From contig CBDCOH010000002.1 of assembly GCA_965219685.1 (NCBI GenBank), positions 3,712,001 to 3,776,000 on the forward strand: a stretch of DNA of 64,000 bases. Reading direction: 5' to 3'. The notes below the pieces were generated by a model, which saw only the letters and a program-made list of their open reading frames with translations, was not told the origin of the DNA and ran no database searches. The DNA comes from Candidatus Spongiisociaceae bacterium. GTDB lineage: Bacteria; Actinomycetota; Acidimicrobiia; Spongiisociales; Spongiisociaceae. Positions 12,012 to 37,480 of this stretch are shown in pieces (within the stretch, counting starts at the first letter, position 1; each line of letters begins with the position of its first letter). The translations under genes and the position numbers were made by a program.

Positions 12012-12866
12012 TCAAGACCTGCCGAGCATATCACTCACTATCCCGGTGGGTCGGGTGCGAGGACTCCATCTTGTGGCATGCCGGAAGAAGGACTTGACGA
12101 TCTGATCGAAGATGATGGCGAGGATCCCGAAGATGATCACGATGAGCACAACCCCGGGCGTGTCCAGGTAGGAACCACGGATGAGCATTATGTAGCCCAG
12201 CCCTGTCTGGGAACCGCTGTACTCCGCGGCCACGTCCAGGCCGAACGAGTAGGCAGTGGCAAGCCGGATACCCGCGATCAGGTGGGGGGTGATCGCCGGG
12301 ACGACGATCGTCCTGTACACGTCCCGGCGGGTGGCGCCGAGCGTCAGCGAAGCTCTCACGTAGACGGGCGAGACGCTGCGGATGGCCTCGATGGTGACGA
12401 CCGACAGGAGCAGGAAGACGCCCAGCGAAACGAGGGCTATCTGCGGCGCCTTACCTATACCGAACCAGAGAATGAACAGAGGTATCAGGGCAAAGAGGGG
12501 AATCGGGCGGATCAGGTCGACCGGGCCCTCGAAGAAATCACGGGCTTGGCGGCTCAATCCGAATAGCAGCCCGGCGATGATCCCCAACGAGCCACCGATG
12601 AAGAGGCCTCCGAGGATCATCTGCATGGATATGAGGAACCCCGTCAGCAACTCGTCCCGGATAGCCCAGAACACCTGCCAGATTCGGTAAGGAGACGGAA
12701 GGAAGACCTCGCGGATATCGGTCAGTTCCGTGAGCGCCACCCAGATAACGGCGGCGACGGCCGGGACGACCAGTGTCTTGAGGGTGCGAGCCGAGACACG
12801 GCGAGTTCTCGGCGGCGTCTCTCCTGCGGGCGGTGGGTCGCTCGAGATGTCCTGGCCTACTGACAT
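12012..12866 (-). CDS. ABC permease, SsuC/TauC-like
   Basis: LPSP, RPIP..ALIPLFILWFGIG, EAA-like loop, GLGYIM. Confidence 0.9.
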   Translation of the reverse strand: MSVGQDISSDPPPAGETPPRTRRVSARTLKTLVVPAVAAVIWVALTELTDIREVFLPSPYRIWQVFWAIRDELLTGFLISMQMILGGLFIGGSLGIIAGLLFGLSRQARDFFEGPVDLIRPIPLFALIPLFILWFGIGKAPQIALVSLGVFLLLSVVTIEAIRSVSPVYVRASLTLGATRRDVYRTIVVPAITPHLIAGIRLATAYSFGLDVAAEYSGSQTGLGYIMLIRGSYLDTPGVVLIVIIFGILAIIFDQIVKSFFRHATRWSPRTRPTGIVSDMLGRS

Positions 12867-13031
12867 GGCCTGCTCCGGCGGGTTGGAAGGAGGCGGACCT
12901 CCCCGGCGGTTTGTGAACCGCCAACCCTGTTGGTCTATGACGCGCCGCCGAGTGTATCAGCCGCCACCAGGGCGGTACGGCGGGGACGGGATCGGCTTTG
13001 CCCGATTCGAGATCGGCGCCGCCGCCTGCGT

Positions 13032-14243
13032 TCAGGCGAGTTCGACCACCTGCCGTACTCGATCGGCGACGTGCACTCCGATGGCGAGCGACGACGTTGC
13101 AGCCGGCGACGGGGCGTTCAGCACGTGGACCGATCTGGGGCCGGCCTGGATGAGGAAGTCATCGTGGAGATCGCCGGAGCGGGTCAGGGCCAGCGCCCGG
13201 ACCCCGGATCGACCCCGTCTGAAATCCGCCGGGTCGAGTTGCGGTACGAGCTCGCGCGCCGAACGCACGAACAGGCGGCGGCTTGCCGACCGGATTATCT
13301 CGGCGGCCCCGGACCGCCAGTGCCGGCGCGCCAACCTCAGGAAGCCGGGGTAGGTCAGCGACTGCATCAGTTCCGCGGGCCGCACCGTTCCCCGGCCGTA
13401 TCCCTCGCGGGCCAGCGCGGGCACCGCGTTGGGGCCGGCATGCACCGAGCCGTCCGCCGACCGGGTCAGGTGAAGACCGAGGAAGGGCAGCTTCGGGTCC
13501 GGAACGGGATAGATCGACGAGCGGACGAACCCGGCGCTGGGACCCGTGATGTCGTAGTACTCGCCCCGGAAGGCGACGATCCGGACTTCCGGGGCGAGGC
13601 CCGCCGCCATGGCCAGGCGGTCGCTGTAGAGACCGCCGCAGTTGACGATTGCACGTGCCGTAACGGACCGGTGCGGTCCCTCGACCGTTACGTGTGATCG
13701 GGCGACGTCGATGTGTTCCACGCGGAACGAGGTCGAGATCGTCGCGCCCCGTTCCCGGAGGACCTCCGCAAGAGCGCGGCACACGTCGGCGAAGTTCACC
13801 GCGCCGGTCTCCGGGACATGCAGAGCCTCGACACATACGGCGTGCGGCTCGAGCTCGCGGAGCTGGTCCGGGCCGATGCGCCTCACGTCCCGGAGACCGT
13901 TGGCTCGCCCCCTCCGTTCGAGTCGGGCCAGCGCCGGAAGCTGCGCCTCGGTCGTGGCGACGACGACCTTCCCGTCGCGGGTGTACGCGACTCCTCGCTC
14001 GTCACAGAACCTGACCAGGCGGGCGATCCCGTCCCGGCACAGGGTCGCCCTCAGCGAGCCGGCGCGGTAGTAGAGCCCGGAGTGGATGACCCCGCTGTTA
14101 CGCCCCGACTGGTGAGCAGCAAGCTCGGGCTCCTTCTCCAGCACGATGACGTTCGGGCGCGGAACCCGCCCGGTCAGCGCCATCGCCGTCGCCAGGCCGA
14201 CGATGCCGCCGCCGATGATCGCCACGTCGTATTCAGGCACCAT
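13032..14243 (-). CDS. lhgO: L-2-hydroxyglutarate oxidase
   Basis: GGGIVG, HQSGRNSGVIHSGLYY, FRGEYY, YPVPDP..PFLGLH, NAPSPAATSSL. Confidence 0.88.
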   Translation of the reverse strand: MVPEYDVAIIGGGIVGLATAMALTGRVPRPNVIVLEKEPELAAHQSGRNSGVIHSGLYYRAGSLRATLCRDGIARLVRFCDERGVAYTRDGKVVVATTEAQLPALARLERRGRANGLRDVRRIGPDQLRELEPHAVCVEALHVPETGAVNFADVCRALAEVLRERGATISTSFRVEHIDVARSHVTVEGPHRSVTARAIVNCGGLYSDRLAMAAGLAPEVRIVAFRGEYYDITGPSAGFVRSSIYPVPDPKLPFLGLHLTRSADGSVHAGPNAVPALAREGYGRGTVRPAELMQSLTYPGFLRLARRHWRSGAAEIIRSASRRLFVRSARELVPQLDPADFRRGRSGVRALALTRSGDLHDDFLIQAGPRSVHVLNAPSPAATSSLAIGVHVADRVRQVVELA

Positions 14244-14254
14244 GACGATGATCG

Positions 14255-15238
14255 CTACGGCTTCAAGACCAGCCGACCGGCGACTGCGCCCGCTCGCAGG
14301 CGGTCCAAGGCGGTGTTGGCATCATGCAGAGGCAGCACTTCGACGTGGCACTCGACGTTCCCTCGCTGCGCATGGGCCAGTACGGTCGTGACATCTGACC
14401 GCGATCCCATGATGGAAGTGCTCACCCACGCCTCGTAGGGAATCGTCTCCATGCCCACGCGGATCGTCGCGCCGCCGCCTCCCACTATCACGATCCTCCC
14501 CTTCCGCTCGACCACCGACTTCGCCAACTCCAACGACTCCGGGGTTCCCACGAAGTCGAGCACGACCGGAGCGGGTTCAATGTCGGCTGTGGGCGGGTGA
14601 GCCTCGTCGGCGCCGAGTTCGAGGGCTCGGATCAGCTTCTCGGGGGCCGTGTCCACGGCCGTGACCGAGCAGTCCGCCAGCAGCCGCAGCCACTGGATGG
14701 CGAACTGCCCGAGACCGCCGACCCCGATCACCACCGCCCGCGATGCCGGCATGGCCCTACGGACCGCCCGGTATGCGGTGGCGCCCGCGTCGGCGAGGGC
14801 CGCGGCCACGGCCGGGTCCAGGTCGCCGATGGGGTAGAGGTAGCTTTCGTCCGGGATCACCAGAGCGTCCGCGTAGCCACCGTCCGCATGTACCCCCTCG
14901 ATAACCACGTCGGGGCACATAGCCTCGTCACCCGACCGGCAGTGGACGCAGTCTCCGCATCCCCAGCTGGCATAGACCAGGCACGGCTCCCCACCGGGGC
15001 CGGCCACCACCACTTCGTGGCCGAGAACGTGCGGAGTACGGGTGGCCTCGCTGTCGAGCAGGTCGAGGTCGGTGTGGCAGACCCCGCACGCGAGGACATC
15101 CGCTACGAACCCCGGCGTGGATCGGGGGCTCGGTCGCGGCCGCTCCTCGATCACGAGTGGCGCTCCTGCCGAGCGCATCACGGCAGCCCGCATGCCGGTG
15201 AGGTTATCCAGACCGGTCGGGTCAGCCGGTATTGACAC
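14255..15238 (-). CDS. Zn-dependent alcohol dehydrogenase (MDR family)
   Basis: CGVCHTD, GHE, CGDCVHC..C, GVGGLG. Confidence 0.9.
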   Translation of the reverse strand: MSIPADPTGLDNLTGMRAAVMRSAGAPLVIEERPRPSPRSTPGFVADVLACGVCHTDLDLLDSEATRTPHVLGHEVVVAGPGGEPCLVYASWGCGDCVHCRSGDEAMCPDVVIEGVHADGGYADALVIPDESYLYPIGDLDPAVAAALADAGATAYRAVRRAMPASRAVVIGVGGLGQFAIQWLRLLADCSVTAVDTAPEKLIRALELGADEAHPPTADIEPAPVVLDFVGTPESLELAKSVVERKGRIVIVGGGGATIRVGMETIPYEAWVSTSIMGSRSDVTTVLAHAQRGNVECHVEVLPLHDANTALDRLRAGAVAGRLVLKP

Positions 15239-16112
15239 CGAACAGTCGAGCCGCGTTGTTCCCGATGTAATCGGCGATGTCGTCGTCGGTGATGTCCGGC
15301 AGGCCGGGGGCGATGTTGAGCTCGGCTGCCTGGGCGGGCAGTGACTTGACGAACGGGAGGTCCTCGCGGCAGTCGTAGTTGTCCGTTCCCCACAGCACCT
15401 TGTCCAGCACCATGAAGTGTTTGGCGTATTTGAGGAAGCGGATGTTGGTCTCGAGAGGTTGCAGGAACCCCCACCAACCGGTGTTGGCGTACACGTTGGG
15501 GTTCTTCAACATCATCATCACGCATTCCTCGTAGTAGTTCTCCCCGGCGTGGACCACCACCAGCTTCAGATCGGGGAAACGCACCGCCACGTCGTCGAGC
15601 AGGAGCGGGTGCTGGTTCTTGAGCAGGAAGTATCCGGACCACCCCGTATGGACGAAGATGACCATCCCAAGCTCCTCCGCCTTCTCGTATATCGGCATGA
15701 TCGATAGGTCGTTGAGCGGCATGTCGAAGCTGCTGGCCGGCGAGATCTTCATCCCCACCAGGCCCATGTCGACGATCTCCTCCATCTCGCGCAACGCGGG
15801 AAGGCCCCCGAACAGGTCGACGCTGCCCAAGCCGATGTAGCGGTCGGGGTATTTGTCAACCGCTGCGGCCACGAAGGAGGGCGGCACCTCCGAGTTGAGA
15901 TGGGGCGCCTTGCTGGCGTGGCAGACCGCCATGTCCACGCCCGCCTCGTCCATGCGCTCGATCATCTGCTCGGCGCTCATGCCCTTGACGAGCCCCGTCT
16001 TGGTGCCTAGGCCACGGGAAGCCCACCCCGCGGCGTACATGGCGTCGTCCATCACGCCCTTGCCGCCCCAGTGCTCCCGCTTCGAGAGCCACACATGGCT
16101 GTCGATGATCAT
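15222..16112 (-). CDS. Amidohydrolase_2 family protein
   Basis: IIDSHV, VHTG, RFPDLKLVVVHAG, LWGTD; start reassigned to ATG 16112. Confidence 0.85.
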   Translation of the reverse strand: MIIDSHVWLSKREHWGGKGVMDDAMYAAGWASRGLGTKTGLVKGMSAEQMIERMDEAGVDMAVCHASKAPHLNSEVPPSFVAAAVDKYPDRYIGLGSVDLFGGLPALREMEEIVDMGLVGMKISPASSFDMPLNDLSIMPIYEKAEELGMVIFVHTGWSGYFLLKNQHPLLLDDVAVRFPDLKLVVVHAGENYYEECVMMMLKNPNVYANTGWWGFLQPLETNIRFLKYAKHFMVLDKVLWGTDNYDCREDLPFVKSLPAQAAELNIAPGLPDITDDDIADYIGNNAARLFGVNTG

Positions 16113-16365
16113 GGTCGTCCCCTTTCCTTCCGGCCTCCACACCCTGGCCACGAGGCGTGACGTTGGTGTGATCACCATAACCAGACGACCGATCCCGGCT
16201 CCGTCTCCTGGTCGGCCGTGTCGGCCACGATACGCCATCTCCCAATCATCGTCATCGGATGGGCATGGACACGCGCCGTCCGCCATCCGTAAGCTCGGTG
16301 ATGTCCCATTCGGGCTGCGCCAAACCGCAACCCGAACAGGGGAAGACGCAACGGAGTCCGAGACG

Positions 16366-17505
16366 ATGAACGCAGCATCGGCCGACCGCAATCTGACCAA
16401 CGACTTCACCCACCGGATCCAGCAGCTGAGGCGGAGTATGGAGGCGGCGAACGTCGACGCCCTGGCCGTCCTGAGCCCGAGCAACATCGAGTACCTGACG
16501 GGCATCGATCTGGTCGACTTCCAGCCCATGGAGACATCGCAGGGGATCGGCAAGCTCGTGTACATTGCCGAGGACCGCGCCGAGTTCATCTACTACGCGG
16601 TCACCAGCCCCGGGATCATGAACGCGGTCACCTGGCTGGACCACGTCGTGTACGACGAACCCGAGGACCCGGCCTCGGTCGTCGCACGGCGCGTTTCCCG
16701 AGATGTCCGGGCACTCGGAGTCGAAGGCGCATTCCTTCCGCACAACCTCTCCAAGCGTCTCGAAGACGCCCTCCCCTCTGTCGAACTCGTCGACGCGACC
16801 CGCCTGGTCTACGAGCAACGCATGGTCAAGTCGGCCGAGGAGGTGAACCGATCGCGGAGGTCGGCGCGTATCGCGGACCTCGCGATGGTTGACATCCTCC
16901 CCGGCATCTACGGGATGAGGGAAGTCGATGTCGCCTCGGCCGCGATGGAGTCCATGCTCGGCCACGGCGCCCACAACGTCGCCTATTCCCCGATCGTCTC
17001 CTCCGGGGAGAGGTTCGGGGGCATCACCTACGGCGCCACCGAGAGAAGGATCGGCAGGGGCGACTCGGTCATGATCGACCTGGGCGCCAAATACAAGGGC
17101 TACCGCTCCGACTTCACCCGCACCTCCCACTTCGGGCCGGCTCCGGCGCCATTGAGGAGGGTGCGGAGGGGGATGCTCGAGGCCAGGAAGGCGGCCCTGG
17201 GGGTGATGAAGGCCGGTGTGACCTTCGGGCTGGTGGACCGGACCATCCGCGACGTTCTCCAGGACAACGGTGTCGATCCCGGACACCTGATCCACGCCAG
17301 CCACGGCATCGGGATCGAGGTGGTCGAGATGCCGTGGCTGGCCGATCAGACACCGGATGTAGTCCTGCGGCCCAACGTGGTGATGACCCTGGAGTTGATA
17401 ATGGGCGTACCGGGCGTCGGGGCCTACACGATCGAAGATGTCCTGGTGATAACGGAAGAAGGAACCGAGGTCTTCACCGAATGCCCCGTTCCCTTCTACG
17501 AATGA
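16366..17505 (+). CDS. M24 Xaa-Pro peptidase / creatinase-fold hydrolase
   Basis: RMVKSAEE, IDLG..YKGYRSDFTRT, HGIG, IEDVLVIT; start at ATG 16366. Confidence 0.87.
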   Translation: MNAASADRNLTNDFTHRIQQLRRSMEAANVDALAVLSPSNIEYLTGIDLVDFQPMETSQGIGKLVYIAEDRAEFIYYAVTSPGIMNAVTWLDHVVYDEPEDPASVVARRVSRDVRALGVEGAFLPHNLSKRLEDALPSVELVDATRLVYEQRMVKSAEEVNRSRRSARIADLAMVDILPGIYGMREVDVASAAMESMLGHGAHNVAYSPIVSSGERFGGITYGATERRIGRGDSVMIDLGAKYKGYRSDFTRTSHFGPAPAPLRRVRRGMLEARKAALGVMKAGVTFGLVDRTIRDVLQDNGVDPGHLIHASHGIGIEVVEMPWLADQTPDVVLRPNVVMTLELIMGVPGVGAYTIEDVLVITEEGTEVFTECPVPFYE

Positions 17506-17520: not shown

Positions 17521-18498
17521 ATGGGTATGGCAACCACCGTGATATCCCCTCCTTGTATGGCAGATGCCGAGAGAGCCGCCGAGGCCATCGCTGTCGAAGG
17601 GGTGTCGGAGATCCTGGTCTACGGGTCGGTGGCGCGGGGCGAGGCCGGTCCGGATAGCGATATCGACCTAGTGGCCATCCACGACGACCTGGACTACTCG
17701 ACCCGTGGTGACAGGTCGCACGATCTCAAGGAACTGGCCGGGTCCGCCGTCGCGCACAGGGTGTCCGTTTACGTCACCGACTGGCCGGAGTGGACCCATC
17801 GAGCCACCCGGGTGTCCACTTCTCTGGAGAGCGCCATCACCGCCGATGCCGTCACGCTATACCACCGGGACCCGAACGGGGTGCGCTGGGGGAAGGAGAT
17901 CGGTATGCCCACCACCAACGAGGAGGAGGCTGCCGGCCGGCTCCACAACGCCCGGCGCGCCCTCTTCGGCTTGAGCGATCATCTGATGACGAGCCCATCG
18001 GAAGGGAGCGCGCTCGAGGACCGTGATCCCGGTTACTACCTTTTTGCGATGAGGGACCGGATGTGCCGTCTGTGCGCCGACGCCCATATGGCGATGGAAA
18101 GCAGCCTCAAGGCCCTCATCCATCTTGGTGGTATGCGCCCTGCCCGTACCCACGACTTGGACGAGTTGCTGAGTGCCCTCCCCGCCGCACAGCGGGATCA
18201 CGTTCGGGGGATGTTCGTCGAGGTCAGCCCCGAGCAGGCGTCGAAGTGGCGGGAGGCGGGCGCATACGAGTACGCCGACTGGTCCTTGGACTACCTCGTA
18301 CCCCATGCCTACCACATGGCCGGCGCCGGCATCGCCGTATCCCGCTACGCCGCCGATCTTCTCTCCGGCGTAGAGGCCGCCCGCCTCATTAACAAGGTGG
18401 CGGTGAGAGCTGAGGATGTGCTCGACGGGTGGGATCTCTCCGCCGAAGACCCGTTCGAAGTGGTCGGTCAACCACCCCCGCCCGAGCTGTCCGAATAG
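17521..18498 (+). CDS. Fused minimal nucleotidyltransferase-HEPN protein (TA-like)
   Basis: YGSVARGEAGPDSDIDL (MNT) plus HMAMESSLKAL...RTHDLDELL (HEPN). Confidence 0.8.
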   Translation: MGMATTVISPPCMADAERAAEAIAVEGVSEILVYGSVARGEAGPDSDIDLVAIHDDLDYSTRGDRSHDLKELAGSAVAHRVSVYVTDWPEWTHRATRVSTSLESAITADAVTLYHRDPNGVRWGKEIGMPTTNEEEAAGRLHNARRALFGLSDHLMTSPSEGSALEDRDPGYYLFAMRDRMCRLCADAHMAMESSLKALIHLGGMRPARTHDLDELLSALPAAQRDHVRGMFVEVSPEQASKWREAGAYEYADWSLDYLVPHAYHMAGAGIAVSRYAADLLSGVEAARLINKVAVRAEDVLDGWDLSAEDPFEVVGQPPPPELSE

Positions 18499-18609
18499 CC
18501 CCCGGGCCAATCGACTTCACCCCGACGTCCGGGGGGACGAAGCAGTTGCCATCGGGACAAGGTCCACCGGCACCGGTTAGTGTCGGCCGGACATGACGAC
18601 GGAGGATCA

Positions 18610-19656
18610 ATGAAGGACCTGGGCAAAGTCATCACGGTCAACGGTCCCATCGAGACCGACCAACTCGGGGTGACCCTCATGCACGAGCATCTGCTGTTCA
18701 CCTGCCTGATGTGGTTCCTGGAGGGAAACCACCGGGGCCTGGGTTCCGACTCCTACGTCCCGGTCACCCCCCAAAACGCAGCGCTGCTACGCGAGTTCCC
18801 TTACCGCAGCCGCGACAACCTGATCAACACGGACTGGCGGCTCAGCGCCCAGGAGATCAGGCGGTTCAAGATGGCCCTCGGCCGCAGCGTGGTCGACTCG
18901 TCGAACCTCGGTCTCGGAAGGGACGTGTGGGGGCTCCGCAACATCGCCGACGACGTCGGGATCAACATCATCTCGGGCACCGGGTACTACGTCGACCATG
19001 CCCATCCGTGGTACGTCGATTCGATGACCGCCGAGGAGTTGGCCGAGGGGATGATCGGTGACATCACCACCGGCGCCGACGGGACCGATATCCGCTGCGG
19101 GCTCATCGGGGAGATCGGCACCTCCGATCCCGTCACGCCCAACGAGTGGAAGGTGCTCGAGGCCTCCGCCATCACCCACCACGCCACCGGCGCGGCCATC
19201 CAGATCCATGCCCTCCACGAGCAGCGTCTGATGCCTTCGATCCTCGAGTTCCTGATCGACGACCACGGCGTGCATCCCAGCCGGGTAATCGCCGGACACC
19301 TAGACCTGTGCACGGATGACCGGCCCTATCTCGAGCAGATCGCCGCCTACGACACCTTCCTGGAACTGGACGACTGGGGCCACCCGTGCCCCACCGACGG
19401 CGTCTACGTGTCCGACGACGACCGGATGTCGACCGTTGAGTGGATGGTGGAGGACGGTTTGGGCGACAAGCTCCTGTTCTCGCACGACATCGGCCTCAAG
19501 GCCCGGTTGTCACACTTCGGCGGGCCCGGCTGGGACCACATCATGAACGTGATCCTCCCGTCGCTCAAGGACCGGGGCATGCAGGTCGACCCGCTCTACG
19601 GATTCGTGATCGACAACCCGGCCCGGGCTCTGGCCCTCGCCATGAAGACAGGATGA
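18610..19656 (+). CDS. Phosphotriesterase-related protein, first gene of the BMC operon
   Basis: Closely similar to 9556-10605; HEH, GEIG, GHLD, SHD; RBS GGAGG. Confidence 0.9.
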   Translation: MKDLGKVITVNGPIETDQLGVTLMHEHLLFTCLMWFLEGNHRGLGSDSYVPVTPQNAALLREFPYRSRDNLINTDWRLSAQEIRRFKMALGRSVVDSSNLGLGRDVWGLRNIADDVGINIISGTGYYVDHAHPWYVDSMTAEELAEGMIGDITTGADGTDIRCGLIGEIGTSDPVTPNEWKVLEASAITHHATGAAIQIHALHEQRLMPSILEFLIDDHGVHPSRVIAGHLDLCTDDRPYLEQIAAYDTFLELDDWGHPCPTDGVYVSDDDRMSTVEWMVEDGLGDKLLFSHDIGLKARLSHFGGPGWDHIMNVILPSLKDRGMQVDPLYGFVIDNPARALALAMKTG

Positions 19657-19722
19657 CGCCCTCGGAGCGGGATCGGGGTTGCGGGCTGGCACCGCCGTGA
19701 CGGCGGCCGATAGGATGGGCCA

Positions 19723-20199
19723 TTGATGGACTACAGGGTTGCGAACACGATCGAGTTGCTGAACCGTGCCACCACCGCCATCTGGTACGAGATGCCGGAG
19801 GAGGTGCGCCGCCTGCGTACCCGGAGGGGGACCAAGGGCTACGGCTGGCCGATGATCATCTGCGCCGAAGAGAACACGAGGGCCTTCGCCGACGACATGG
19901 CCGTGTTGCGGAACGCCGGGCGGGACGCCTCGCTCGACTTGGAGACCCTCAAGCAGTTGGTGCGGATGTTCTGCGAGGCCCAGATGGGCATCCTCCACAA
20001 CTGGTACGGGCTGGACGACAGCGTCGATCTGGTCCGCAGTTCGCTCGACGCACTGGATCACATAGAGACGCATGGGGAATACCTCGCTTACACCCACGAG
20101 TTGAGCGTGTACCTGGGACGCCTTCACTGGTGGGCCGACACCCTGGTGCCGTGGGACGACATAAGTGCCAGATACGCGGATATGGACCTAGACCGCTAG
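19723..20199 (+). CDS. Stand-alone cucumopine synthase C-terminal helical-bundle-like protein
   Basis: IWYEMPEEVRRL, AEENTRAF, DLETLK, YGL and YLGRLHWW...VPW match my recollection of the family pattern. Confidence 0.7.
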   Translation: MMDYRVANTIELLNRATTAIWYEMPEEVRRLRTRRGTKGYGWPMIICAEENTRAFADDMAVLRNAGRDASLDLETLKQLVRMFCEAQMGILHNWYGLDDSVDLVRSSLDALDHIETHGEYLAYTHELSVYLGRLHWWADTLVPWDDISARYADMDLDR

Positions 20200-20219
20200 A
20201 CAGGAATCGAGGAGGAACG

Positions 20220-21278
20220 GTGGCCGAACGCGACGGTAACTACAGGGTCGGATGCGTGGGGGCGGGCTTCGCGGCCTCGGTATACCACCTGCCCGTCCAG
20301 CAGCGGGTCGAAGGCGTGGAGACGGTGGCGATCGCCGATCTCAACATGGACCTGGCCCGGCAGCGGGCGGACGAGTTCGGGATCCCGGAGGTCTACGGTC
20401 CGTTCGAGGACATGATCGAACAGGCCGACCTGGACATCGTCTCCGTCTGCGTGCCGCCCTTCCTCCACCTGGCGGTCACCAAGGCGGCGGCTGCCGCCGG
20501 CGTTCATGTCATCTGCGAGAAGCCGATGGCTGCCAGCCCCGAGGAGGTGGCCGAACTGGTCCAGGTGGTGGAGGACAGCGGGATCAGGTTCATGATCGCC
20601 GAGAACTTCTGGTGGTATCCCGACCTGATCGACGCCAAGGCGCGGATCGACGCCGGGCTGATCGGCGACCTCTTCCATGTGCGGGTCGAGGAGTTCATCA
20701 ACGACATCGACCCCACCTACCGGCGGGACCAGGAACGGTTCCTCATGTACGAGCAGGACGTCCACTACGTCGACGTGATCCGGCACCTGGTCGACGACGA
20801 TGTCGTACGGGTCCACGCCATGACCCGCCAGATCGCCACCCAGCAACTAGCCGGTGAGAATTTCGCCATGATCACCATGGAGTTCGCCAACGGAGTGATC
20901 GCTCGCATCGACGAATGCTGGGTCTCCGCCCGTGGCGACCAGTACGTGATGAGGATACGCATCGACGGCACGCTCGGGTCGATCTTCATCAACCAGCCCG
21001 ACCATCCGTACAGGCTCTACACGGACAAGCCCGGTCTGGAGGGCTGGCACTATCCCCCGACCGACACCAAGCCACCGGGCGGGCACGATGTCGGCTATGC
21101 GGCCCCTTGGCCGGCCGACGAACTCAGGGAAGGCACCGTGGGCTGCTACATGGCCTTCCTCGATTACCTGGAAAACGGTGTTCCTCCGGTCACGGTGGCA
21201 TCCGACAACGCCAAGACGATGGAAGTCGTGTTCGCTGCCTACGAGTCGGCCGAGACCCAGCAGGTGATCCACCTGTGA
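20220..21278 (+). CDS. Gfo/Idh/MocA family oxidoreductase
   Basis: VGCVGAG, HVICEKPMA, HYVD; GTG start after GGAGG. Confidence 0.9.
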   Translation: MAERDGNYRVGCVGAGFAASVYHLPVQQRVEGVETVAIADLNMDLARQRADEFGIPEVYGPFEDMIEQADLDIVSVCVPPFLHLAVTKAAAAAGVHVICEKPMAASPEEVAELVQVVEDSGIRFMIAENFWWYPDLIDAKARIDAGLIGDLFHVRVEEFINDIDPTYRRDQERFLMYEQDVHYVDVIRHLVDDDVVRVHAMTRQIATQQLAGENFAMITMEFANGVIARIDECWVSARGDQYVMRIRIDGTLGSIFINQPDHPYRLYTDKPGLEGWHYPPTDTKPPGGHDVGYAAPWPADELREGTVGCYMAFLDYLENGVPPVTVASDNAKTMEVVFAAYESAETQQVIHL

Positions 21279-21333
21279 CAGTTGCGGCGGGACCCGCCTC
21301 ACCCGGTCGGCCGGACTAGACCCGGCACACCTG

Positions 21334-22149
21334 ATGTCCACGGCGTTACGGGACGGGCTCCTCGACTTCTTCCGCTCGGATGCATGGGCAGACGCCCAGG
21401 CTCTGCTCGATGATCCGGGGGTGAGCTTCTTCGAGGCGAAGGTCACCACCGTGGTCCACCCGCTCTCGCTCGAGTTCCTCTTCGTGGAGTACCTGGACCG
21501 TATAGGCCGCCGCGTGCGCAACGTCGGCCACGCGTTCGTCGGGGAATGGGGATGGATCAAGATCTACCCGGAGACCCGGCCGGTTCTCAACGTCGTGTGG
21601 CGCTACGACGATTCGGCGGTGATCGCCGCCCACCACGAGGACTTCCTGGACGTGTGGACCGACGAGGGGGAGCGCGACTACCTGGCTGATGTCGGGCCGA
21701 GAAGGGCCACAGCGGCGGACCGGGAGGGCATCCTCTCCTACATAGCGTCCGACCACTGGCAGCAGGTCCTGGACTGGTACGCCGACCACGAGACCGAGCA
21801 CTTCCACACCTACCTCCATACCGACCTGCACCCCCACGACCTGGCGCCATTCCTGATCGACAGCCTGGCGCAGCGTGGCTTCGAGTTGGGGGTGGCGCCC
21901 TTCTTCCTGGCCCGGCCCGATCTCGGGCTGATGTGGATCGGGCTGGCGCCGGACGGCATGACCTCCCAGGAGGTGGCCTGCATCCACACCCCAGGGGCGC
22001 TCATCGAGCCCAAGGAACTCACCGACCAGGACCGGGAGTACGGTGGCGATCCGTGGACCGTGGCCGACTTCCGCGCCCGCGTTGTCCAGGACCCGTACGA
22101 GGTTCTGACGCTCTCCGAGGCAAGGGCGATAGTCGATGAACTGCTCTGA
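21334..22149 (+). CDS. Hypothetical two-repeat protein (paralog of 8652-9461)
   Basis: Shares FFRSD.W, VHP..LEFLF, NVGHA.VG, EHFH.YL.TD.HP.DL, LARPD.G.MWIG, HTPGA..EP.ELT. Confidence 0.8.
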   Translation: MSTALRDGLLDFFRSDAWADAQALLDDPGVSFFEAKVTTVVHPLSLEFLFVEYLDRIGRRVRNVGHAFVGEWGWIKIYPETRPVLNVVWRYDDSAVIAAHHEDFLDVWTDEGERDYLADVGPRRATAADREGILSYIASDHWQQVLDWYADHETEHFHTYLHTDLHPHDLAPFLIDSLAQRGFELGVAPFFLARPDLGLMWIGLAPDGMTSQEVACIHTPGALIEPKELTDQDREYGGDPWTVADFRARVVQDPYEVLTLSEARAIVDELL

Positions 22150-22161
22150 GGTGAGGGCGCC

Positions 22162-23955
22162 ATGAGACGCTTCGTGACCACCGAGGACATCCGGGAGTTG
22201 GCCGAGGTCGGCGAGTTCGAGTTCATGATGCGGGAGGGGACGGTCCTGACCGATGCGGCCCTTGACGAGGCGCACCGCCTAGGCGTGCGTTTGGTGGAGG
22301 GATCCAGCTTGGCCGCTCCCCGGGCCGCCACCGGTGGCCGGCCCGCTTCCCGCCCGTCCCGGGTCGCGCCTCCGTCGCCCGCCCGCTCGTCGCGGGTCCC
22401 GGCCCGCGATGCTTCGCCGGCCCCGGGAACGAAAACGGCTACCTCTGCACAGCCTCGGTTCGAGGGACTTCCGGACCCCGCCCGGATGCACCCGAAGCTC
22501 CTGGTCGACGGTGAGTTCCGGGATGCCACCGGTGGGGCTACCAACCGTTCGGTCGATCCCGCCACGAGGGAGACCATCGTCCAGGTGGCGTCGGCAGCCC
22601 CCGACGACATCGACGCAGCGGTCCGGGCCGCCCGGCGGGCCTTCCGCGACTGGCGGGTACGCGACCCCGCCGAGCGCGCCGATCTCCTGCTCAAGGTCGC
22701 GGAACGGATCGAGCAGGAGCACGAGTTCCTGGCCAAGGTCGAGAGCCAGGATGTGGGGCGGCCGATAAGGGAGACCACCCTGATCGACCTTCCGGCATCC
22801 TGGGATCCCTTCCGGTTCTTCCAGGGCTTGGTGCGCGCCATCGACGGGAGGGTGCTGGCGCTGCCCCAGGACTCGCTCGACTACGTGCGCAAGGAGCCGA
22901 TGGGGGTCGTGGGCATGATCATCCCCTGGAACTTCCCCCTGCACATCGCCTGCCGCAAGTCGGCCGCAGCACTCGCGGCGGGGAACACCGTAGTTCTCAA
23001 GCCACCGGAGTTGGCGCCGCTGTCCTGCCTGGAGCTGGGGCGGATCTGCCTGGAGGCCGGCCTCCCACCCGGCGTATTCAACGTGGTGCCGGGCGCCGGC
23101 GAGGTGGCGGGACAGGCCCTGGTCGAGCACCGGGGGGTGGACAAGATCGCCTTCACGGGATCGACGGTGGTCGGCCGCTCCGTGATGCGCGGATCGGCGG
23201 CGACGATCAAGAGGGTGTCCCTCGAGTTGGGCGGCAAGTCACCGTCGATCGTCTTCGCGGACGCCGACTTGGACCGGGCGGTGAGCGGCGCCCTGTTCGG
23301 CATCTACCTCGCCCAGGGGCAGGTGTGCTCCGCCGGATCGAGGATCCTCGTGGAGCGGTCGATATACGACGACTTCGTGGAGCGCTTCGCGGCCAGGGCG
23401 GCGTCCATCCGGATCGGGCTGCCGTGGCGGTGGCGGACACAGCTCGGCCCGCTGGTGAACGAGCGCCAGATGGAGCGGGTCTACGAGTACGTGGACATAG
23501 GCAGGGCCGAGGGGGCGACCGTGTTGGGGGGCGGTACTCCGCCCGACGACCCCGAACTCGCCCGGGGTAACTTCATCAGGCCCACTGCCTTCGTTAACGT
23601 CGAGCCCGGGTTCCGCATCGCGCAGGAGGAGATCTTCGGTCCGGTCGTGGTCGTCATGCCGTTCAGCGGTGAGGAGGAGGCTGTCCGGCTTGCCAACGAC
23701 GTCCGCTACGGTTTGGCGGCCGGAATCTGGACCACCGATGTCGGTAGGGCGCATAGAGTGGCCCGGGACCTGGAGGCCGGCTCCATCTGGGTAAACCACT
23801 TCGGTGTCTACCCCAGCGAGGCGCCCTTCGGTGGCTACAAGGAGAGCGGCACTGGCCACGACCTGGGCCTGGAGTCGCTGCACGAGTACATGGAGACAAA
23901 GAACGTGCACGTCAACATCGGGCGTGGATTCAACGACTGGTACGAGGACAACTGA
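22162..23955 (+). CDS. NAD(P)+-dependent non-acylating aldehyde dehydrogenase with an N-terminal EutQ/EutT-like module and a P/A/S/R-rich linker
   Basis: IIPWNFP, FTGST, LELGGKS, GQVCSAGSR, EEIFGPV, PFGGYKESG; about 100 extra N-terminal residues. Confidence 0.92.
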   Translation: MRRFVTTEDIRELAEVGEFEFMMREGTVLTDAALDEAHRLGVRLVEGSSLAAPRAATGGRPASRPSRVAPPSPARSSRVPARDASPAPGTKTATSAQPRFEGLPDPARMHPKLLVDGEFRDATGGATNRSVDPATRETIVQVASAAPDDIDAAVRAARRAFRDWRVRDPAERADLLLKVAERIEQEHEFLAKVESQDVGRPIRETTLIDLPASWDPFRFFQGLVRAIDGRVLALPQDSLDYVRKEPMGVVGMIIPWNFPLHIACRKSAAALAAGNTVVLKPPELAPLSCLELGRICLEAGLPPGVFNVVPGAGEVAGQALVEHRGVDKIAFTGSTVVGRSVMRGSAATIKRVSLELGGKSPSIVFADADLDRAVSGALFGIYLAQGQVCSAGSRILVERSIYDDFVERFAARAASIRIGLPWRWRTQLGPLVNERQMERVYEYVDIGRAEGATVLGGGTPPDDPELARGNFIRPTAFVNVEPGFRIAQEEIFGPVVVVMPFSGEEEAVRLANDVRYGLAAGIWTTDVGRAHRVARDLEAGSIWVNHFGVYPSEAPFGGYKESGTGHDLGLESLHEYMETKNVHVNIGRGFNDWYEDN

Positions 23956-23971
23956 CCGGGAGGTTCGGATC

Positions 23972-24250
23972 ATGGAAGGTGCTCTTGGGTTGATCGAGAC
24001 CCGCGGGCTGGTAGGCGCCATAGAGGCGTCCGACGCGATGGCCAAGGCTGCCCGCGTCGAGATCATCGGCCGCGACGTGATCGGAGGCGGTTACGTCACG
24101 GTCATGGTGCAGGGCGAGGTCGGCGCGGTGAAGTCGGCGGTGGACGTCGGCGCATCGGCTGCCAAGAAGGTGGGGGATCTCGTCGCAGCCCATCTGATTC
24201 CCAAGCCCCATGAGGACTTGGGGAAGGTGAGCGCTCTGCTCGACGGCTGA
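23972..24250 (+). CDS. BMC-H hexamer shell protein (EutM/PduA-like)
   Basis: ALGLIETRGLVGAIEASDAMAKAARV...GGGYVTVMVQGEVGAVKSAV...HLIPKPH. Confidence 0.96.
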   Translation: MEGALGLIETRGLVGAIEASDAMAKAARVEIIGRDVIGGGYVTVMVQGEVGAVKSAVDVGASAAKKVGDLVAAHLIPKPHEDLGKVSALLDG

Positions 24251-24328
24251 CCCCAAGGACTTGCCCGACCGGAATGCGGGGCTGGGCAGCCGGGAGGCAG
24301 TGGGCAGAGCGAGAGCGAGGAGACATAG

Positions 24329-24595
24329 ATGTTGTTGTGCCGTGTTACGGGAAGCACCGTCGCGACGGTGCGCGCCGGCGGTGTGGGAGGCACCAGGCTG
24401 CTGGTCGTGCGGCCGGAGGGCGGCGACCCCGCCTCGTCATTCGTGGCGGTGGACGTCGTAGGAGCCGGATCCGGCGACCTGGTGCTGGTCGCCCAGGGGA
24501 GCGCGGCGAGGATCCCCGACGCCGCCGCGTCGGTACCGACCGATGCGACCGTCGTCGGCATCGTCGACGAAGCAAGCCACGACCCGGGAGGCTGA
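24329..24595 (+). CDS. BMC-P pentamer vertex protein (EutN/CcmL-like)
   Basis: RVTGSTVATV...LLVV...VAVDVVGAGSGDLVLVAQGSAAR...DATVVGIVD. Confidence 0.95.
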   Translation: MLLCRVTGSTVATVRAGGVGGTRLLVVRPEGGDPASSFVAVDVVGAGSGDLVLVAQGSAARIPDAAASVPTDATVVGIVDEASHDPGG

Positions 24596-24596
24596 G

Positions 24597-25226
24597 GTGA
24601 CGAGTCCAGGGCAATCGGGTGGCGGGAGCGGCAACGCCCTGCGCGCCTATGTGTACGTCGACAAGATGCAGCCGACCTGGGCGGCCTATGTGGGAAGGGA
24701 CGACCGGGGAGGCTCCTCATTGGAGGGGATGGCCCAGCTCTACGTGGAGGTGGCGCCGGCCACGCTGGTGTTCTCCCTGGCCAACGCCGCGCTGAAGAGC
24801 ACAGAGACTGCTTCCTCGTTGCTGGTTGCCGAGCGTCGGTACGGGACGCTCGAGCTCCATTCGGCCAACCCCGACGCGGTCCGCCAGGCCGGAACGATCA
24901 TCCTGGCGATGATCGGCAGCTCCTCGGCGCCTGGTATAGCGCCCTCGTCGGTGACCACCCGCATCGTCAACAACGTGACCGGAACCGAGGCCGGCCTGGT
25001 GAACCGGATGGGGGTCCGAGGCCGGCTCAGGAAAGGCGACGCCATGCTGGTCGTGGAGACGGAGCCCGCCGCCTACGTGGCCCTGGCCGCCAACGAGGTG
25101 GAGAAGCACACCTCGCTTCGCATGATCCTCGTACGGCTCCACGGGGCCAGCGGCCGCCTGATCCTCGCCGGGAGCGAAGCCGAGGTGGAGATAGGGCACC
25201 AGGTGGCCCTCGAGGCTCTCGGGTAG
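24597..25226 (+). CDS. BMC-T tandem-domain shell protein (CcmP/CsoS1D-like)
   Basis: LRAYVYVDKMQP, LYVEVAP, ERRYGTLELHS, ETEPAAY..LAANEVEK, GASGRLILAG. Confidence 0.9.
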   Translation: MTSPGQSGGGSGNALRAYVYVDKMQPTWAAYVGRDDRGGSSLEGMAQLYVEVAPATLVFSLANAALKSTETASSLLVAERRYGTLELHSANPDAVRQAGTIILAMIGSSSAPGIAPSSVTTRIVNNVTGTEAGLVNRMGVRGRLRKGDAMLVVETEPAAYVALAANEVEKHTSLRMILVRLHGASGRLILAGSEAEVEIGHQVALEALG

Positions 25227-25237
25227 GGGGAGGAGTC

Positions 25238-25780
25238 GTGCGCCAGATACTTACCACCGATGACATCCGGGCGGCAGTCCGCCGCGGCAAGACCGAGTTG
25301 GTGGTGGAGCCACCTACCGTGATCACCGCGGCCGCTCGGGACGAGGCCAACCTTGCCGGACTCCGGATCATCGAAGGACCCAAGGAACGCAGCTCAGACA
25401 TTGTCATCAAGGTGGCCGGCGAGCGGATCCGGGCCACCTTGCTCCTCGACGAAGCGCCTGTCACCGCGTCCGCCATCCGCGACCTGCTCCCCCTGTCGGG
25501 CACCGTCAACCATGCCCGCCTGGCCGGTGACGAGCTCATGTTCCCGATCCGCACCTACCTGGGTGCCGAGAACCAGTCCAAGGCACAGACGGCCGGCAAT
25601 ATCGCCTACTGGCCCGACCGGATGATCATCGCCATGTTCTACGGAGACACCGGAGGCGTGGGACTCACCAACGTCTTCGCCCAGGTGGTGCCCGAGGACA
25701 TGGACGCCTTCCGCCGGGCCGGCGACTTCGTCTGGAAGAACCAGGGCGTGGAGCTCCTGATAGAGCGTCACCGGGGTTAG
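25238..25780 (+). CDS. EutQ/EutT-like N-terminal module fused to a cyclophilin-like (DUF3830 / McbB N-domain-like) domain
   Basis: ILTTDDIR...TVITAAARDEA, then APVTASAI..LLPL..TVNHARLAGDEL, GNIAYWP, FYG, VVPEDMDAFRRAG. Confidence 0.75.
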   Translation: MRQILTTDDIRAAVRRGKTELVVEPPTVITAAARDEANLAGLRIIEGPKERSSDIVIKVAGERIRATLLLDEAPVTASAIRDLLPLSGTVNHARLAGDELMFPIRTYLGAENQSKAQTAGNIAYWPDRMIIAMFYGDTGGVGLTNVFAQVVPEDMDAFRRAGDFVWKNQGVELLIERHRG

Positions 25781-26030: not shown

Positions 26031-28481
26031 GTGAGGTCGCAGTACCGGGTGGTGGTGATCGGGGGCGGCGTGGTCGGTGCCAGTGTTCTGTATCACTTGG
26101 CGAAGCTGGGTTGGAGCGACGCGGCCATTGTGGAGCGCGAGGTGTTGACGGCCGGGTCGAGCTGGCACGCCGCCGGCGGTGTGCACACTCTCAACGCCGA
26201 TCCGAACATCGCGGCTCTGCAGGCGTACACGATCGATCTGCTATCGGAGATCGGGGAGGAGTCGGGCCTCGACGTGGGGATGCATATGACGGGTGGCATC
26301 TCGGTCGCTTCGGTGCCGGAGAGGTGGGAGTGGTTGCAGGCGGCGTATCGGGTGTTCCAGACGATGGGTATCGAGGACGTGCGGCTGATCGGTCCGGATG
26401 AGATCGAGGAGCGGTGTCCGATCATGAACGTCGCTGATGTGCTTGGGGGTCTGTGGGCGGATCGTGAGGGCTATATCGATCCGTCGGCGGTGGTCCATGC
26501 CTACGCCAAGGCTGCCCGGTTGCGTGGCGGCGAGGTGATCGAACACAACCGGGTGGTCGAGTTGCACCCACGCCGTGACGGGTCGTGGAAGGTGGTGACC
26601 GAGTTGGGAACCATCGTCGCGGAGCACGTTGTGAACGCCGCCGGGCTATGGGCCAAGCAGGTGGGGCGGATGGCGCGGCTGGAGCTTCCCGTCTCCCCGA
26701 TGCAGCATCACTATCTGGTCACCGAGGCGATCCCCGAACTCGCGGCGCTCAACTTCGAGGTGCCGATGATGATCGACCTGGAGGGGTACACCTACATGCG
26801 GCAGGAGCTCCATGGGGTGCTGGTCGGGATCTACGAGCGCGATTACCGGCACTGGAACATGGATGGTGCGCCGTGGGACTACGGCTTGGAGCTGATCCCA
26901 CCGGACGTGGATCGGATCTCGGGCGAGCTGTCGTTTGCGATGTCCCGCTACCCGGTCCTCGAGCGCACCGGTATCAGCCGCTGGGTGAACGGGGCGTTCA
27001 CGTTCTCACCGGACGGCAACCCCCTGGTGGGTCCGGTGCCCGGGTTGCGCAACTACTGGTCGGCGTGTGCGGTGATGGCCGGTTTCCTCCAGGGTGGCGG
27101 CGTGGGCAAGTCGCTGGCGGAGTGGATGATCGAAGGGGAGCCGGAGGAGGACATCTTCGCGATGGACGTGGCCCGTTTCGGGTCCTTCGCCCAGAATCGT
27201 GAGTACATCCGCCAGATGACCGGTCAGTTCTACTCGCGCCGGTTTGTGATCACCTACCCGAACGAGCAGCTGTGGGCGGGCCGTCCGCTGCGGATGGCCC
27301 CAGCGTACGATGCGATGACCGCGGCGGGGGCGCAATGGGGGTGCTCGTACGGTCTCGAGGTCCCGATCTACTTCGCCCCCAAGGGCTTCGTGGAGGTGCC
27401 GACGTTGCGCCGCTCCAACGCGTTCGACATCGTCGGCGAAGAGTGCCGGCGGGTGCGTTCCGGTGTGGGGATCCTCGACATTGCCGGGTTCTCCCGGTAC
27501 GAGGTCGCCGGTCCCGGCGCCGCGGCGTGGCTCGACCGGCTCTTCGCCGGCGCGCTGCCCGCACCGGGGCGGATCAAGCTGGCCCCGATGCTGGGCCACG
27601 ACGGCCGGCTCAAGGGAGACCTGACGTTGTTCAACTGGGGGGACGGCACCTGGTGGATCGTGGGCTCGTACTACCTGCGGGCCTGGCACATGCGCTGGTT
27701 CAACGACCACCTCGGCGACGGGGTGACGGTGCGTGATATCTCCGATGCAGTCGTCGGCTTCTCGCTCTCCGGGCCGGGTTCTCGCGAGCTGTTGCAACGG
27801 GTCACGCCGGATGACGTCTCAGCGGATGGCATGCGTTTCATGGCGTGTCGCCAGTTCGACATCGGTATGATCCGCGCCCGGGTGGGCCGGATCTCGGTCA
27901 CCGGAGAGCTCGGATACGAGATCCACTGCCCGGCCGCCGAGCACATCGCCCTGCGCCGCCTCCTTCTCGAGGCCGCCGACGGTCTCGATGCGATCGAGTA
28001 CGGCTACAACGCGCTGCTCTCGCTCAGGATCGAGAAGAGCTTCGGCGTCTGGTCGACCGAATTCCGCCAGGAGTACACCCCGGCCATGACCGGGTTGGAC
28101 CGATGGATCGACTGGTCCAAGGACGACTTCATCGGCTCGGGGGCGGCTCGCAGGGAGCGGGACAACGACAGCGCTACCAGGAGGCTGGTCACCCTCGAGG
28201 TGGACGCCACCGACGCGGACGCCACCGGGTACGAGCCGGTGTGGAACGGCCACCGACGGGTCGGCTACATCACCTCGGGCGACTACGGCCACACCACCGA
28301 CAAGAGCCTCGCCATGGCCCTCATTGACCGGGAACACACCGCAGAAGGAACCGAACTCACAACCCACATCGTCGGTGTCGAACGCCCAGTCCGAATAATC
28401 GCCGCCTCACCCTACGACCCGAACGGCACGGCGATGCGAACCGGCGTCCCGGCCGGCCCGGTCGGTCGGGCAAAGCCATGA
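26031..28481 (+). CDS. FAD-dependent dimethylglycine/sarcosine dehydrogenase-like protein (GcvT family)
   Basis: GGGVVG, GSSWHAAG, FSPDGNPLVGP, TGELGYEI, SLRIEK. Confidence 0.92.
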   Translation: MRSQYRVVVIGGGVVGASVLYHLAKLGWSDAAIVEREVLTAGSSWHAAGGVHTLNADPNIAALQAYTIDLLSEIGEESGLDVGMHMTGGISVASVPERWEWLQAAYRVFQTMGIEDVRLIGPDEIEERCPIMNVADVLGGLWADREGYIDPSAVVHAYAKAARLRGGEVIEHNRVVELHPRRDGSWKVVTELGTIVAEHVVNAAGLWAKQVGRMARLELPVSPMQHHYLVTEAIPELAALNFEVPMMIDLEGYTYMRQELHGVLVGIYERDYRHWNMDGAPWDYGLELIPPDVDRISGELSFAMSRYPVLERTGISRWVNGAFTFSPDGNPLVGPVPGLRNYWSACAVMAGFLQGGGVGKSLAEWMIEGEPEEDIFAMDVARFGSFAQNREYIRQMTGQFYSRRFVITYPNEQLWAGRPLRMAPAYDAMTAAGAQWGCSYGLEVPIYFAPKGFVEVPTLRRSNAFDIVGEECRRVRSGVGILDIAGFSRYEVAGPGAAAWLDRLFAGALPAPGRIKLAPMLGHDGRLKGDLTLFNWGDGTWWIVGSYYLRAWHMRWFNDHLGDGVTVRDISDAVVGFSLSGPGSRELLQRVTPDDVSADGMRFMACRQFDIGMIRARVGRISVTGELGYEIHCPAAEHIALRRLLLEAADGLDAIEYGYNALLSLRIEKSFGVWSTEFRQEYTPAMTGLDRWIDWSKDDFIGSGAARRERDNDSATRRLVTLEVDATDADATGYEPVWNGHRRVGYITSGDYGHTTDKSLAMALIDREHTAEGTELTTHIVGVERPVRIIAASPYDPNGTAMRTGVPAGPVGRAKP

Positions 28482-35520: not shown

Positions 35521-35647
35521 TCCACACCCGAGCCAACGAGTTCAGGAGGGTGCCGGGTTACCGACGGTCTCAGGCGACTGGTGAGAACCCGTCTCTGTCC
35601 GGCACCCTCTCGGGTCGGTAGGCCATGAAACCTGCCGACCCCTACCA

Positions 35648-37449: not shown

Positions 37450-37480
37450 GGATGAGATCGGGGCGAGGGACGGAGGTGTG

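Follow-up and report, generated by a model that had tools for sequence, protein, structure and literature searches.

A separately encoded McbB/KslB-type fold as a candidate cargo pair of a lineage-restricted microcompartment in sponge-associated Acidimicrobiia

Candidatus Spongiisociaceae bacterium, a member of the Acidimicrobiia (Actinomycetota; assembly GCA_965219685.1), carries a cassette of nine closely spaced plus-strand genes spanning 18580-25780 of the window analysed here, that is, the whole 64,000-nucleotide stretch of contig CBDCOH010000002.1 between positions 3,712,001 and 3,776,000. The cassette, delimited by an open reading frame (ORF) list and family scans, has intergenic gaps of 11-78 bases and one overlap, and it combines an aldehyde dehydrogenase (ALDH) and the genes of a bacterial microcompartment (BMC) shell with two small proteins, one a stand-alone helical bundle (19723-20199), the other a barrel of the cyclophilin-like type (25238-25780). 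The reading favoured here, tentatively and at slightly less than even probability, is that these two ORFs are separately encoded halves of the fold of the Pictet-Spenglerases McbB and KslB and are jointly cargo of a small metabolosome, with the bundle entering via the barrel. Their placement inside a BMC operon had already been noted in a first-pass annotation of the sequence, and the shell genes (PF00936, PF03319 and NF053796-like) indeed lie between the two ORFs.

The bundle ORF (plus strand) encodes 158 amino acids counted from a TTG codon, the ATG at 19726, behind GGATGG, being the likelier start because orthologues begin MDYR. Its product matches PF18631 (Cucumopine_C) at E 4.2e-12 and 46.9 bits (cut-off 27) across ORF residues 8-138 and profile positions 3-138 of 141, and PF18631 is present as a single copy in the genome. 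In sequence searches of the PDB, only the C-terminal part of McbB was matched (3x27 residues 185-333, E 0.0018). The AlphaFold2 model of the protein (pLDDT 97.5) matches McbB 3x27_A with a TMq of 0.83 and an rmsd of 2.2 across 156 columns, and KslB 9nst with a TMq of 0.74, while Foldseek returned nothing else from the PDB below E 0.2, so that bacterial Pictet-Spenglerases are the only proteins from which this fold is known. The first-pass annotation, which had likened this ORF to the C-domain of McbB alone and had looked to a structural comparison for confirmation, is thus borne out in sequence as well as in predicted structure.

The barrel ORF (plus strand) encodes 180 amino acids from a GTG start three bases downstream of GGAGGA. 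Its product matches PF12903 (DUF3830) at E 1.6e-12 and 48.1 bits (cut-off 26), with additional matches to PF04126 and PF18050, and PF12903 is likewise a single-copy family in this genome. The best PDB match is the stand-alone DUF3830 protein 3kop (E 1e-6), and phmmer also aligns the barrel with the N-terminal part of McbB (3x27 residues 35-146, E 0.0087). On this sequence evidence the barrel protein is a homologue of the McbB N-domain, as had been suggested from the motifs LLPLSGTVNHARLAGDEL, FYG, VVPEDMDAFRRAGDFVWK and YGDTGG, all of which are found in its translation. Across 17 barrel sequences, 82 columns are invariant, a degree of conservation that suggests ligand binding more than a simple adaptor role.

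Proteins in which both domains are joined provide the main link between the two ORFs. An exhaustive search with the bundle returned 115 relatives at E <= 0.001, comprising 100 of at most 215 amino acids and 15 of at least 260 amino acids. Ten of these 15 long relatives were taken into a Pfam scan, where a cyclophilin-like/DUF3830 N-half precedes the bundle region in seven, two are tandem bundles without a barrel (P0034 and P0065) and one has no Pfam match. In hhalign comparisons with the fused family, the barrel family maps to columns 3-126 (probability 99.6, E 9e-25) and the bundle family to columns 145-297 (E 6e-39), so that the two families occupy non-overlapping halves of the fused proteins. 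In KslB, the domain order is opposite to that of McbB, and the active site is described as using Tyr92 of the dimer partner's bundle (available text of PMC12012969). A reversed order together with a partner-bundle tyrosine closing the active site makes a bundle acting in trans structurally reasonable, and since each KslB bundle caps the active site in the barrel of the other chain, an a2b2 assembly would be the natural expectation. Complex prediction with the bundle and barrel residues 50-180 gave scores of 0.23, 0.64 and 0.01, no verdict either way. The closest relatives from outside the family are P0011 for the bundle (51% identity) and P0145 for the barrel (59%), each on a single 3875-base Logan contig, which suggests that both genes may lie on one contig and closer together than here. 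That the two ORFs are what is left of a fused gene after a frameshift or decay was ruled out by the order reversed relative to McbB, the seven intervening genes, the conservation of both reading frames and low dN/dS. Taking fused relatives and co-conservation together, it is plausible that the bundle and barrel proteins form one two-subunit enzyme.

The co-conservation is strict within a narrow lineage. The bundle gene was found in 13 of the 60 relatives searched, all among the 28 same-family genomes; none of the 32 genomes representing eleven other families of the order gave a match. A full-length barrel gene lies approximately 5 kb away on the same strand in 12 of these 13 genomes; the thirteenth, in which the full barrel gene was not found, is a fragmented assembly of 440 contigs and 83% completeness. 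All 13 loci that are long enough keep the nine-gene order, including a metagenome contig at 65-76% identity, and two short contigs show only the phosphotriesterase-related (PTE-family), bundle and oxidoreductase genes; in one locus (L048), the PTE gene lies 5.6 kb further upstream. A metagenome scan with a close 8-row alignment yielded 3 loci. A sample of 400 further Actinomycetota genomes yielded no PF18631, and a sample of 400 further genomes of the class yielded no match to a profile of stand-alone bundles. The dN/dS values of 0.06-0.20 for the bundle gene and 0.08-0.28 for the barrel gene are similar to those of their neighbours, and purifying selection acts on both. The metabolosome is restricted to a subset of sponge-associated Acidimicrobiia, and its confinement to one sponge-associated family may mark the use of a host-specific compound. 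The cross-genome co-occurrence test covered one bacterial family and one 65%-identity relative; the co-occurrence that the first-pass annotation had expected of the two families holds within this range, and DUF3830 also occurs without the bundle.

A second line of evidence concerns how the pair could reach a shell. The first 53 residues of the barrel protein align with positions 1-54 of NF012001, the EutQ model, at E 5.3e-6 (E 1.2e-6 for the piece alone), and the resulting EutQ-N-like module (25238-25384, plus strand) is 39% identical to the N-terminus of the ALDH (22162-22305, plus strand), which was delimited by alignment to the barrel N-terminus and EutQ and itself matches EutQ residues 1-52 weakly (E 0.013). 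These matches support the presence of the putative targeting module that had been suspected on the barrel. A whole-genome search with the 49-amino-acid module recovered exactly two proteins, the barrel and the ALDH, and a Pfam scan of the isolated 49-residue module gave no match. The barrel is not itself an EutQ protein: it scores 26.3 bits against a cut-off of 193, with only 54 of 233 model positions matched and the remainder belonging to DUF3830. According to the available text of bioRxiv 10.1101/2024.05.17.594633, helices H1-H2 of Salmonella EutQ bind the EutL/EutM shell interface, and deletion of the EutQ N-terminus separates cargo from shell. By likeness to this protein, the modules of the barrel and the ALDH would serve in targeting to the shell. 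Because only these two proteins are tagged, the untagged bundle would need to enter on a partner. Under the favoured two-part reading, the ALDH and the barrel would be tethered at the inner face of the shell through EutQ H1-H2-like modules, and the bundle would enter the compartment by binding the barrel in the expected a2b2 assembly. In another lineage, a similar module is fused directly to a bundle in P0109, a metagenomic protein of 313 amino acids (44% identity over 32 residues, E 3e-7); there the module is followed by a Cys-rich stretch, and weak PduM and eut_hyp matches occur as well. A further candidate, the metagenomic protein P0092 (288 amino acids, with the bundle after a long N-terminal region), was set aside, its likeness to the module having been seen by eye and not supported by BLASTP (E 12).

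The chemistry of the pair is constrained by a missing catalytic residue. In the available text of PMC12012969 and PMC10372676, E97 of McbB is called the core catalytic site, the E274Q variant of KslB is reported as inactive, and all 19 substitutions of E100 in Fcs1 are likewise inactive. The phmmer alignment with 3x27 places McbB E97 (the Glu of YGPLTE) opposite barrel Gly140, a pairing that hhalign with the fused family reproduces; E97 was positioned with an inferred SEQRES/tag offset of 21 and is the only Glu within one position of the site. Gly140 is invariant in 17 of 17 barrel sequences, and no carboxylate is conserved at positions 137-140 (position 137 is D/N/K and 139 is G/D/E), so that the loss of the catalytic Glu, which the first-pass annotation had proposed, stands. 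Arg72 and His87 of McbB, which are important as well, would face Lys115 and Ile130 of the barrel. With an invariant Gly at the catalytic position, the pair is not a canonical Pictet-Spenglerase, and the missing Glu speaks against a canonical Pictet-Spengler mechanism in either direction. Several fused relatives also lack the catalytic Glu, suggesting that the fold probably serves more than one chemistry. In addition, McbB/KslB-type Pictet-Spenglerases are single polypeptides, whereas the domains here are two ORFs; the pair is related to these enzymes by fold but, lacking the Glu, would not belong with them by mechanism.

These observations bear directly on the possibility that the pair works as a forward Pictet-Spenglerase, joining an aryl-ethylamine amino acid and an aldehyde intermediate either for scavenging or to form an alkaloid- or opine-like product. 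Such a condensation is what every characterised member of the fold catalyses, from McbB and KslB to cucumopine synthase and the Fcs1/opine synthases of fungi, as far as the available portions of PMC12012969, PMC10372676 and PMC12536604 describe them, but the Glu that is essential in McbB, KslB and Fcs1 is Gly in the barrel. Moreover, an aldehyde consumer tethered next to the ALDH would compete with it, and the surroundings appear catabolic (hydrolases, an ABC importer and dehydrogenases), with no biosynthetic tailoring genes in the stretches examined. This forward function is accordingly regarded as very unlikely.

The ALDH (22162-23955, plus strand) is a protein of 597 amino acids in which the PF00171 domain (residues 124-582, E 4.5e-172) is preceded by the EutQ-N-like module and a Pro/Ala/Ser-rich linker of approximately 60 residues is present. 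Its nearest NCBIfam and PDB relatives are non-acylating enzymes, namely betaine-aldehyde and hydroxymuconic-semialdehyde dehydrogenases and ALDH2, with E values of 2.9e-140 against the hydroxymuconic-semialdehyde dehydrogenases 4go3/4go4 and 7e-157 against HpaE, and its translation contains ELGGKSP and GQVCSAGSR. Pfam and NCBIfam scans of the nine cassette genes identified neither a phosphotransacylase nor an alcohol dehydrogenase, the usual cofactor-recycling partners in metabolosomes. Apart from the ALDH, NAD(P) chemistry is represented solely by a Gfo/Idh/MocA oxidoreductase (20211-21278, plus strand; PF01408, PF22725 and PF02894), which matches an iolG-like NCBIfam at E 1.6e-37, under the cut-off, and whose PDB relatives include 5uhw and DgpA-type enzymes. 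If the barrel and bundle are indeed joint cargo, the Gfo/Idh/MocA enzyme may oxidise the substrate first, the pair would handle an amine-carbonyl (iminium) adduct in the cleavage direction, by a Mannich- or Pictet-Spengler-type reversal or by imine release, and the co-tethered ALDH would oxidise the aldehyde so released. A bolder version, considered quite unlikely, holds that the metabolosome has as its signature enzyme a Pictet-Spenglerase-fold descendant that is split, lacks the Glu and runs in reverse, with retro-Mannich or retro-Pictet-Spengler-type C-C/C-N cleavage by a shell-tethered barrel/bundle heteromer. In this case, the compound first oxidised by the Gfo/Idh/MocA enzyme would be a host-derived amino compound, which the PTER-like hydrolase may release from an N-acyl derivative and which the PotD/F-like ABC system encoded downstream may import. 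If true, the McbB/KslB fold would here serve for the first time in catabolism and in the lyase direction, and microcompartments of an animal symbiont would gain a new class of chemistry.

Another possible source of the aldehyde is a protein that the first-pass annotation had overlooked in this role. The 271-amino-acid product of 21334-22149 (plus strand) has no Pfam or NCBIfam match, and an Atlas search gave no usable match; its AlphaFold2 model (pLDDT 94.4) shows a two-module VOC-like (glyoxalase/dioxygenase) fold, as all of its weak Foldseek matches are VOC-fold proteins (among them TnmS2, glyoxalases, HPPD and DUF1338; best E 1.7e-4, TM 0.15-0.20). Residues H42, H66, E155, H156, H158 and H166 are invariant in 19 sequences. 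This protein is a plausible second aldehyde-forming enzyme, and both it and the barrel/bundle pair are candidate aldehyde-generating signature enzymes. Were the VOC-like protein to make the aldehyde by metal-dependent ring or C-C cleavage, the barrel and bundle would be accessory, acting in delivery, isomerisation or product handling. Such a role would agree with the restriction of its model matches to the VOC superfamily, the invariant His/Glu clusters, the hydroxymuconic-semialdehyde dehydrogenases among the close relatives of the ALDH, and the presence upstream of a VOC-like paralogue (8652-9461, plus strand; 40-43% identity) together with a second PTE-like hydrolase gene (9556-10605, plus strand), which makes VOC-like and PTE-like proteins a recurring pair. 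On the other hand, the 271-residue protein lacks an EutQ-N-like module, the structural matches are weak, and any metal site or activity is putative. A VOC-like source of the aldehyde with an accessory barrel and bundle is therefore considered rather improbable.

Several points weigh against the proposal that the barrel and bundle are joint cargo acting together. The catalytic Glu of the family is absent, with Gly140 in its place; the cleavage direction is thermodynamically and mechanistically unproven; and the cassette holds another plausible aldehyde-forming enzyme in the VOC-like protein. The two genes lie 5 kb apart with seven genes between them, and their co-occurrence among kin that share one cassette amounts to a single evolutionary observation, to which the Rosetta-stone fusions are added. 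Stand-alone forms dominate, given that 100 of the 115 bundle relatives do not exceed 215 amino acids and the barrel has its nearest Atlas clusters among DUF3830 proteins of 126-139 amino acids. The Haloferax volcanii control genome contains PF12903 and no PF18631, and a bundle ORF was not found within approximately 1.5 kb of three DUF3830 paralogues in relatives, flanks that are shorter than the spacing here. Part of this evidence also favours a different explanation, in which the two proteins act independently, the barrel being a stand-alone DUF3830 enzyme or an EutQ-like adaptor between shell and cargo, the bundle having a separate role, and the likeness to the two McbB domains reflecting nothing more than common descent. 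Most relatives of both families are stand-alone, DUF3830 is found without PF18631 in the control genome and as paralogues in relatives, tandem-bundle proteins exist without a barrel, the two genes are non-adjacent, and EutQ, as described in the available text of 10.1101/2024.05.17.594633, has the same layout of an N-terminal module plus a beta-barrel. Independence nevertheless sits poorly with the fused barrel+bundle proteins known in two domain orders, with the strict co-conservation of both genes in one cassette, with a bundle fold that occurs in the PDB only within two-domain enzymes, and with the extreme conservation of the barrel core, and it is judged unlikely, if by no means negligible.

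Besides the proteins discussed above, the cassette encodes an opening enzyme and the shell. The first gene of the conserved cassette (18580-19656, plus strand) encodes a PTE-family amidohydrolase (PF02126, E 2e-62), whose nearest solved structures are 9efa, a 'Phosphotriesterase-related protein' (E 8e-52), and 3k2g; mammalian PTER is described as an N-acetyltaurine and N-acetyl-beta-alanine hydrolase in the portion of the literature available. The three-gene shell, at the same locus as the PF00171 ALDH, consists of a BMC-H protein (23972-24250, plus strand; PF00936, E 2.9e-25), a BMC-P (EutN/CcmL) vertex protein (24329-24595, plus strand; PF03319, E 2.4e-22) and a CcmP-like tandem BMC-T protein with an uncertain start (24543-25226, plus strand), which matches the beta-carboxysome CcmP model NF053796 at E 7.8e-43, under the equivalog cut-off, and has no Pfam match at E 0.01. 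Terminator and promoter scans gave nothing exceeding shuffled expectation.

The neighbourhood is partly conserved as well. Upstream of the VOC-like paralogue lie genes for a PhyH-family dioxygenase (6395-7345, plus strand) and a threonine-synthase-like pyridoxal-phosphate (PLP) enzyme (7410-8627, plus strand), and six related loci likewise have the PhyH, PLP-enzyme and VOC-like paralogue genes upstream of the cassette. Downstream, in the region 34282-40347, genes for a PotD/PotF-like substrate-binding protein, for permeases and for a PotA-like ATPase are interrupted by one for a CocE/NonD hydrolase; in eight related loci, the PotD/F-like binding protein and permease genes follow the barrel gene directly, suggesting that they are a likely importer for the pathway. 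Taken together, the ALDH, the PTE-like enzyme, the transporter and the neighbouring genes point to catabolism of an imported amino compound, as judged from family assignments. Directly after the cassette lies a gene for an 816-amino-acid dimethylglycine/sarcosine-dehydrogenase-like protein (26031-28481; DAO, FAO_M and GCV_T), for which the related loci gave no counterpart in the same place.

Between the second PTE-like gene and the cassette, the window encodes a TauC/SsuC-like ABC permease (12012-12866, minus strand), and within 12012-17505 an FAD-dependent L-2-hydroxyglutarate oxidase-like ORF and a Zn-dehydrogenase-like ORF were recognised by eye only. The same region includes ORF 15222-16100 (minus strand), tentatively labelled an amidohydrolase, and an M24 peptidase gene with a weak likeness to the ectoine hydrolase DoeA (E 5e-26, far under the cut-off); both are kept in some, not all, related loci. 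A 325-amino-acid ORF (17521-18498) between the M24 peptidase-like and PTE genes is shared with only part of the related loci, and a nucleotidyltransferase-like GS..G....D.D motif was seen in it by eye only. A second BMC-type locus occurs in two genomes from outside the family but within the same order of bacteria (L053, G040:C3:248500-268400, and L054, G029:C23:183000-202900), with shell genes 33-54% identical to those of the cassette, an adjoining short ALDH-like match and ORFs with EutQ-N-like modules. It was ruled out as a sister cassette, the shell genes alone being in common and neither barrel nor bundle being present.

Many ALDH-containing BMC types have been catalogued without a signature enzyme (Sutter et al. 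2021, PMC8217296, in the text available), and for BMCs without a known aldehyde-forming enzyme the present locus offers a concrete candidate cargo pair with a small three-gene shell. A natural split of the McbB/KslB fold without the essential Glu can reveal the fold's other chemistry and whether the bundle acts in trans. In addition, an EutQ-type module used as a direct tag on two enzymes would offer a compact means of targeting cargo to engineered compartments. A literature search joining bacterial microcompartment and cucumopine found nothing; that on DUF3830, PF12903 and PF18631 returned fungal opine synthases only; that on Spongiisocius and Spongiisociaceae returned nomenclature only; and in the literature examined on sponge Acidimicrobiia, 'microcompartment' occurred in reference lists only. 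It appears that a split, tagged, Glu-less cargo pair of the McbB/KslB fold in a lineage-restricted metabolosome is undescribed, although the locus type may already bear a MIC or MUF label in Supplementary Data 2 of PMC8217296.

Among known systems, the closest in fold are the bacterial Pictet-Spenglerases McbB (PDB 3X27) and the cucumopine/mikimopine synthases, single chains with a barrel followed by a bundle, both domains of which have homologues here. The barrel of the cassette and that of McbB have NHA, YG and VVPED..A.R.AG..WK in common. Unlike McbB, the cassette encodes the two domains as separate genes with the bundle gene first, carries Gly at the position of Glu97 and bears a putative BMC shell-binding module on the barrel, and its context is a catabolic microcompartment rather than a biosynthetic cluster or T-DNA. 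KslB (PDB 9NST and others) has a bundle-then-barrel order, the same as the gene order in the cassette; it is, however, a single chain with essential Glu274, Arg256 and Lys264, whereas the cassette pair is two chains with Gly at the Glu position. For stand-alone DUF3830 proteins such as 3KOP, to which the barrel core is closest in sequence, no tag, known partner or BMC context is reported. EutQ of the ethanolamine microcompartment shares approximately 50 homologous N-terminal residues with the module described here, but it continues with the cargo-binding helices H3-H4 and a cupin domain with acetate kinase activity, whereas here the module is fused straight to the DUF3830 barrel and the ALDH. 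The ARO BMC of Actinobacteria, as described in the available portions of PMC8217296 and PMC10470539, likewise occurs in Actinomycetota and combines an atypical non-acylating ALDH with a simple shell, and in both systems the PF00171 ALDH is kin to muconic-semialdehyde dehydrogenases rather than to PduP/EutE. The ARO BMC is described there as having one BMC-P and two BMC-H proteins, an ALDH without a detectable encapsulation peptide and pfam02900 ring-opening oxygenases, whereas the cassette described here combines BMC-H, BMC-P and a CcmP-like BMC-T with a tagged ALDH and the barrel/bundle pair.

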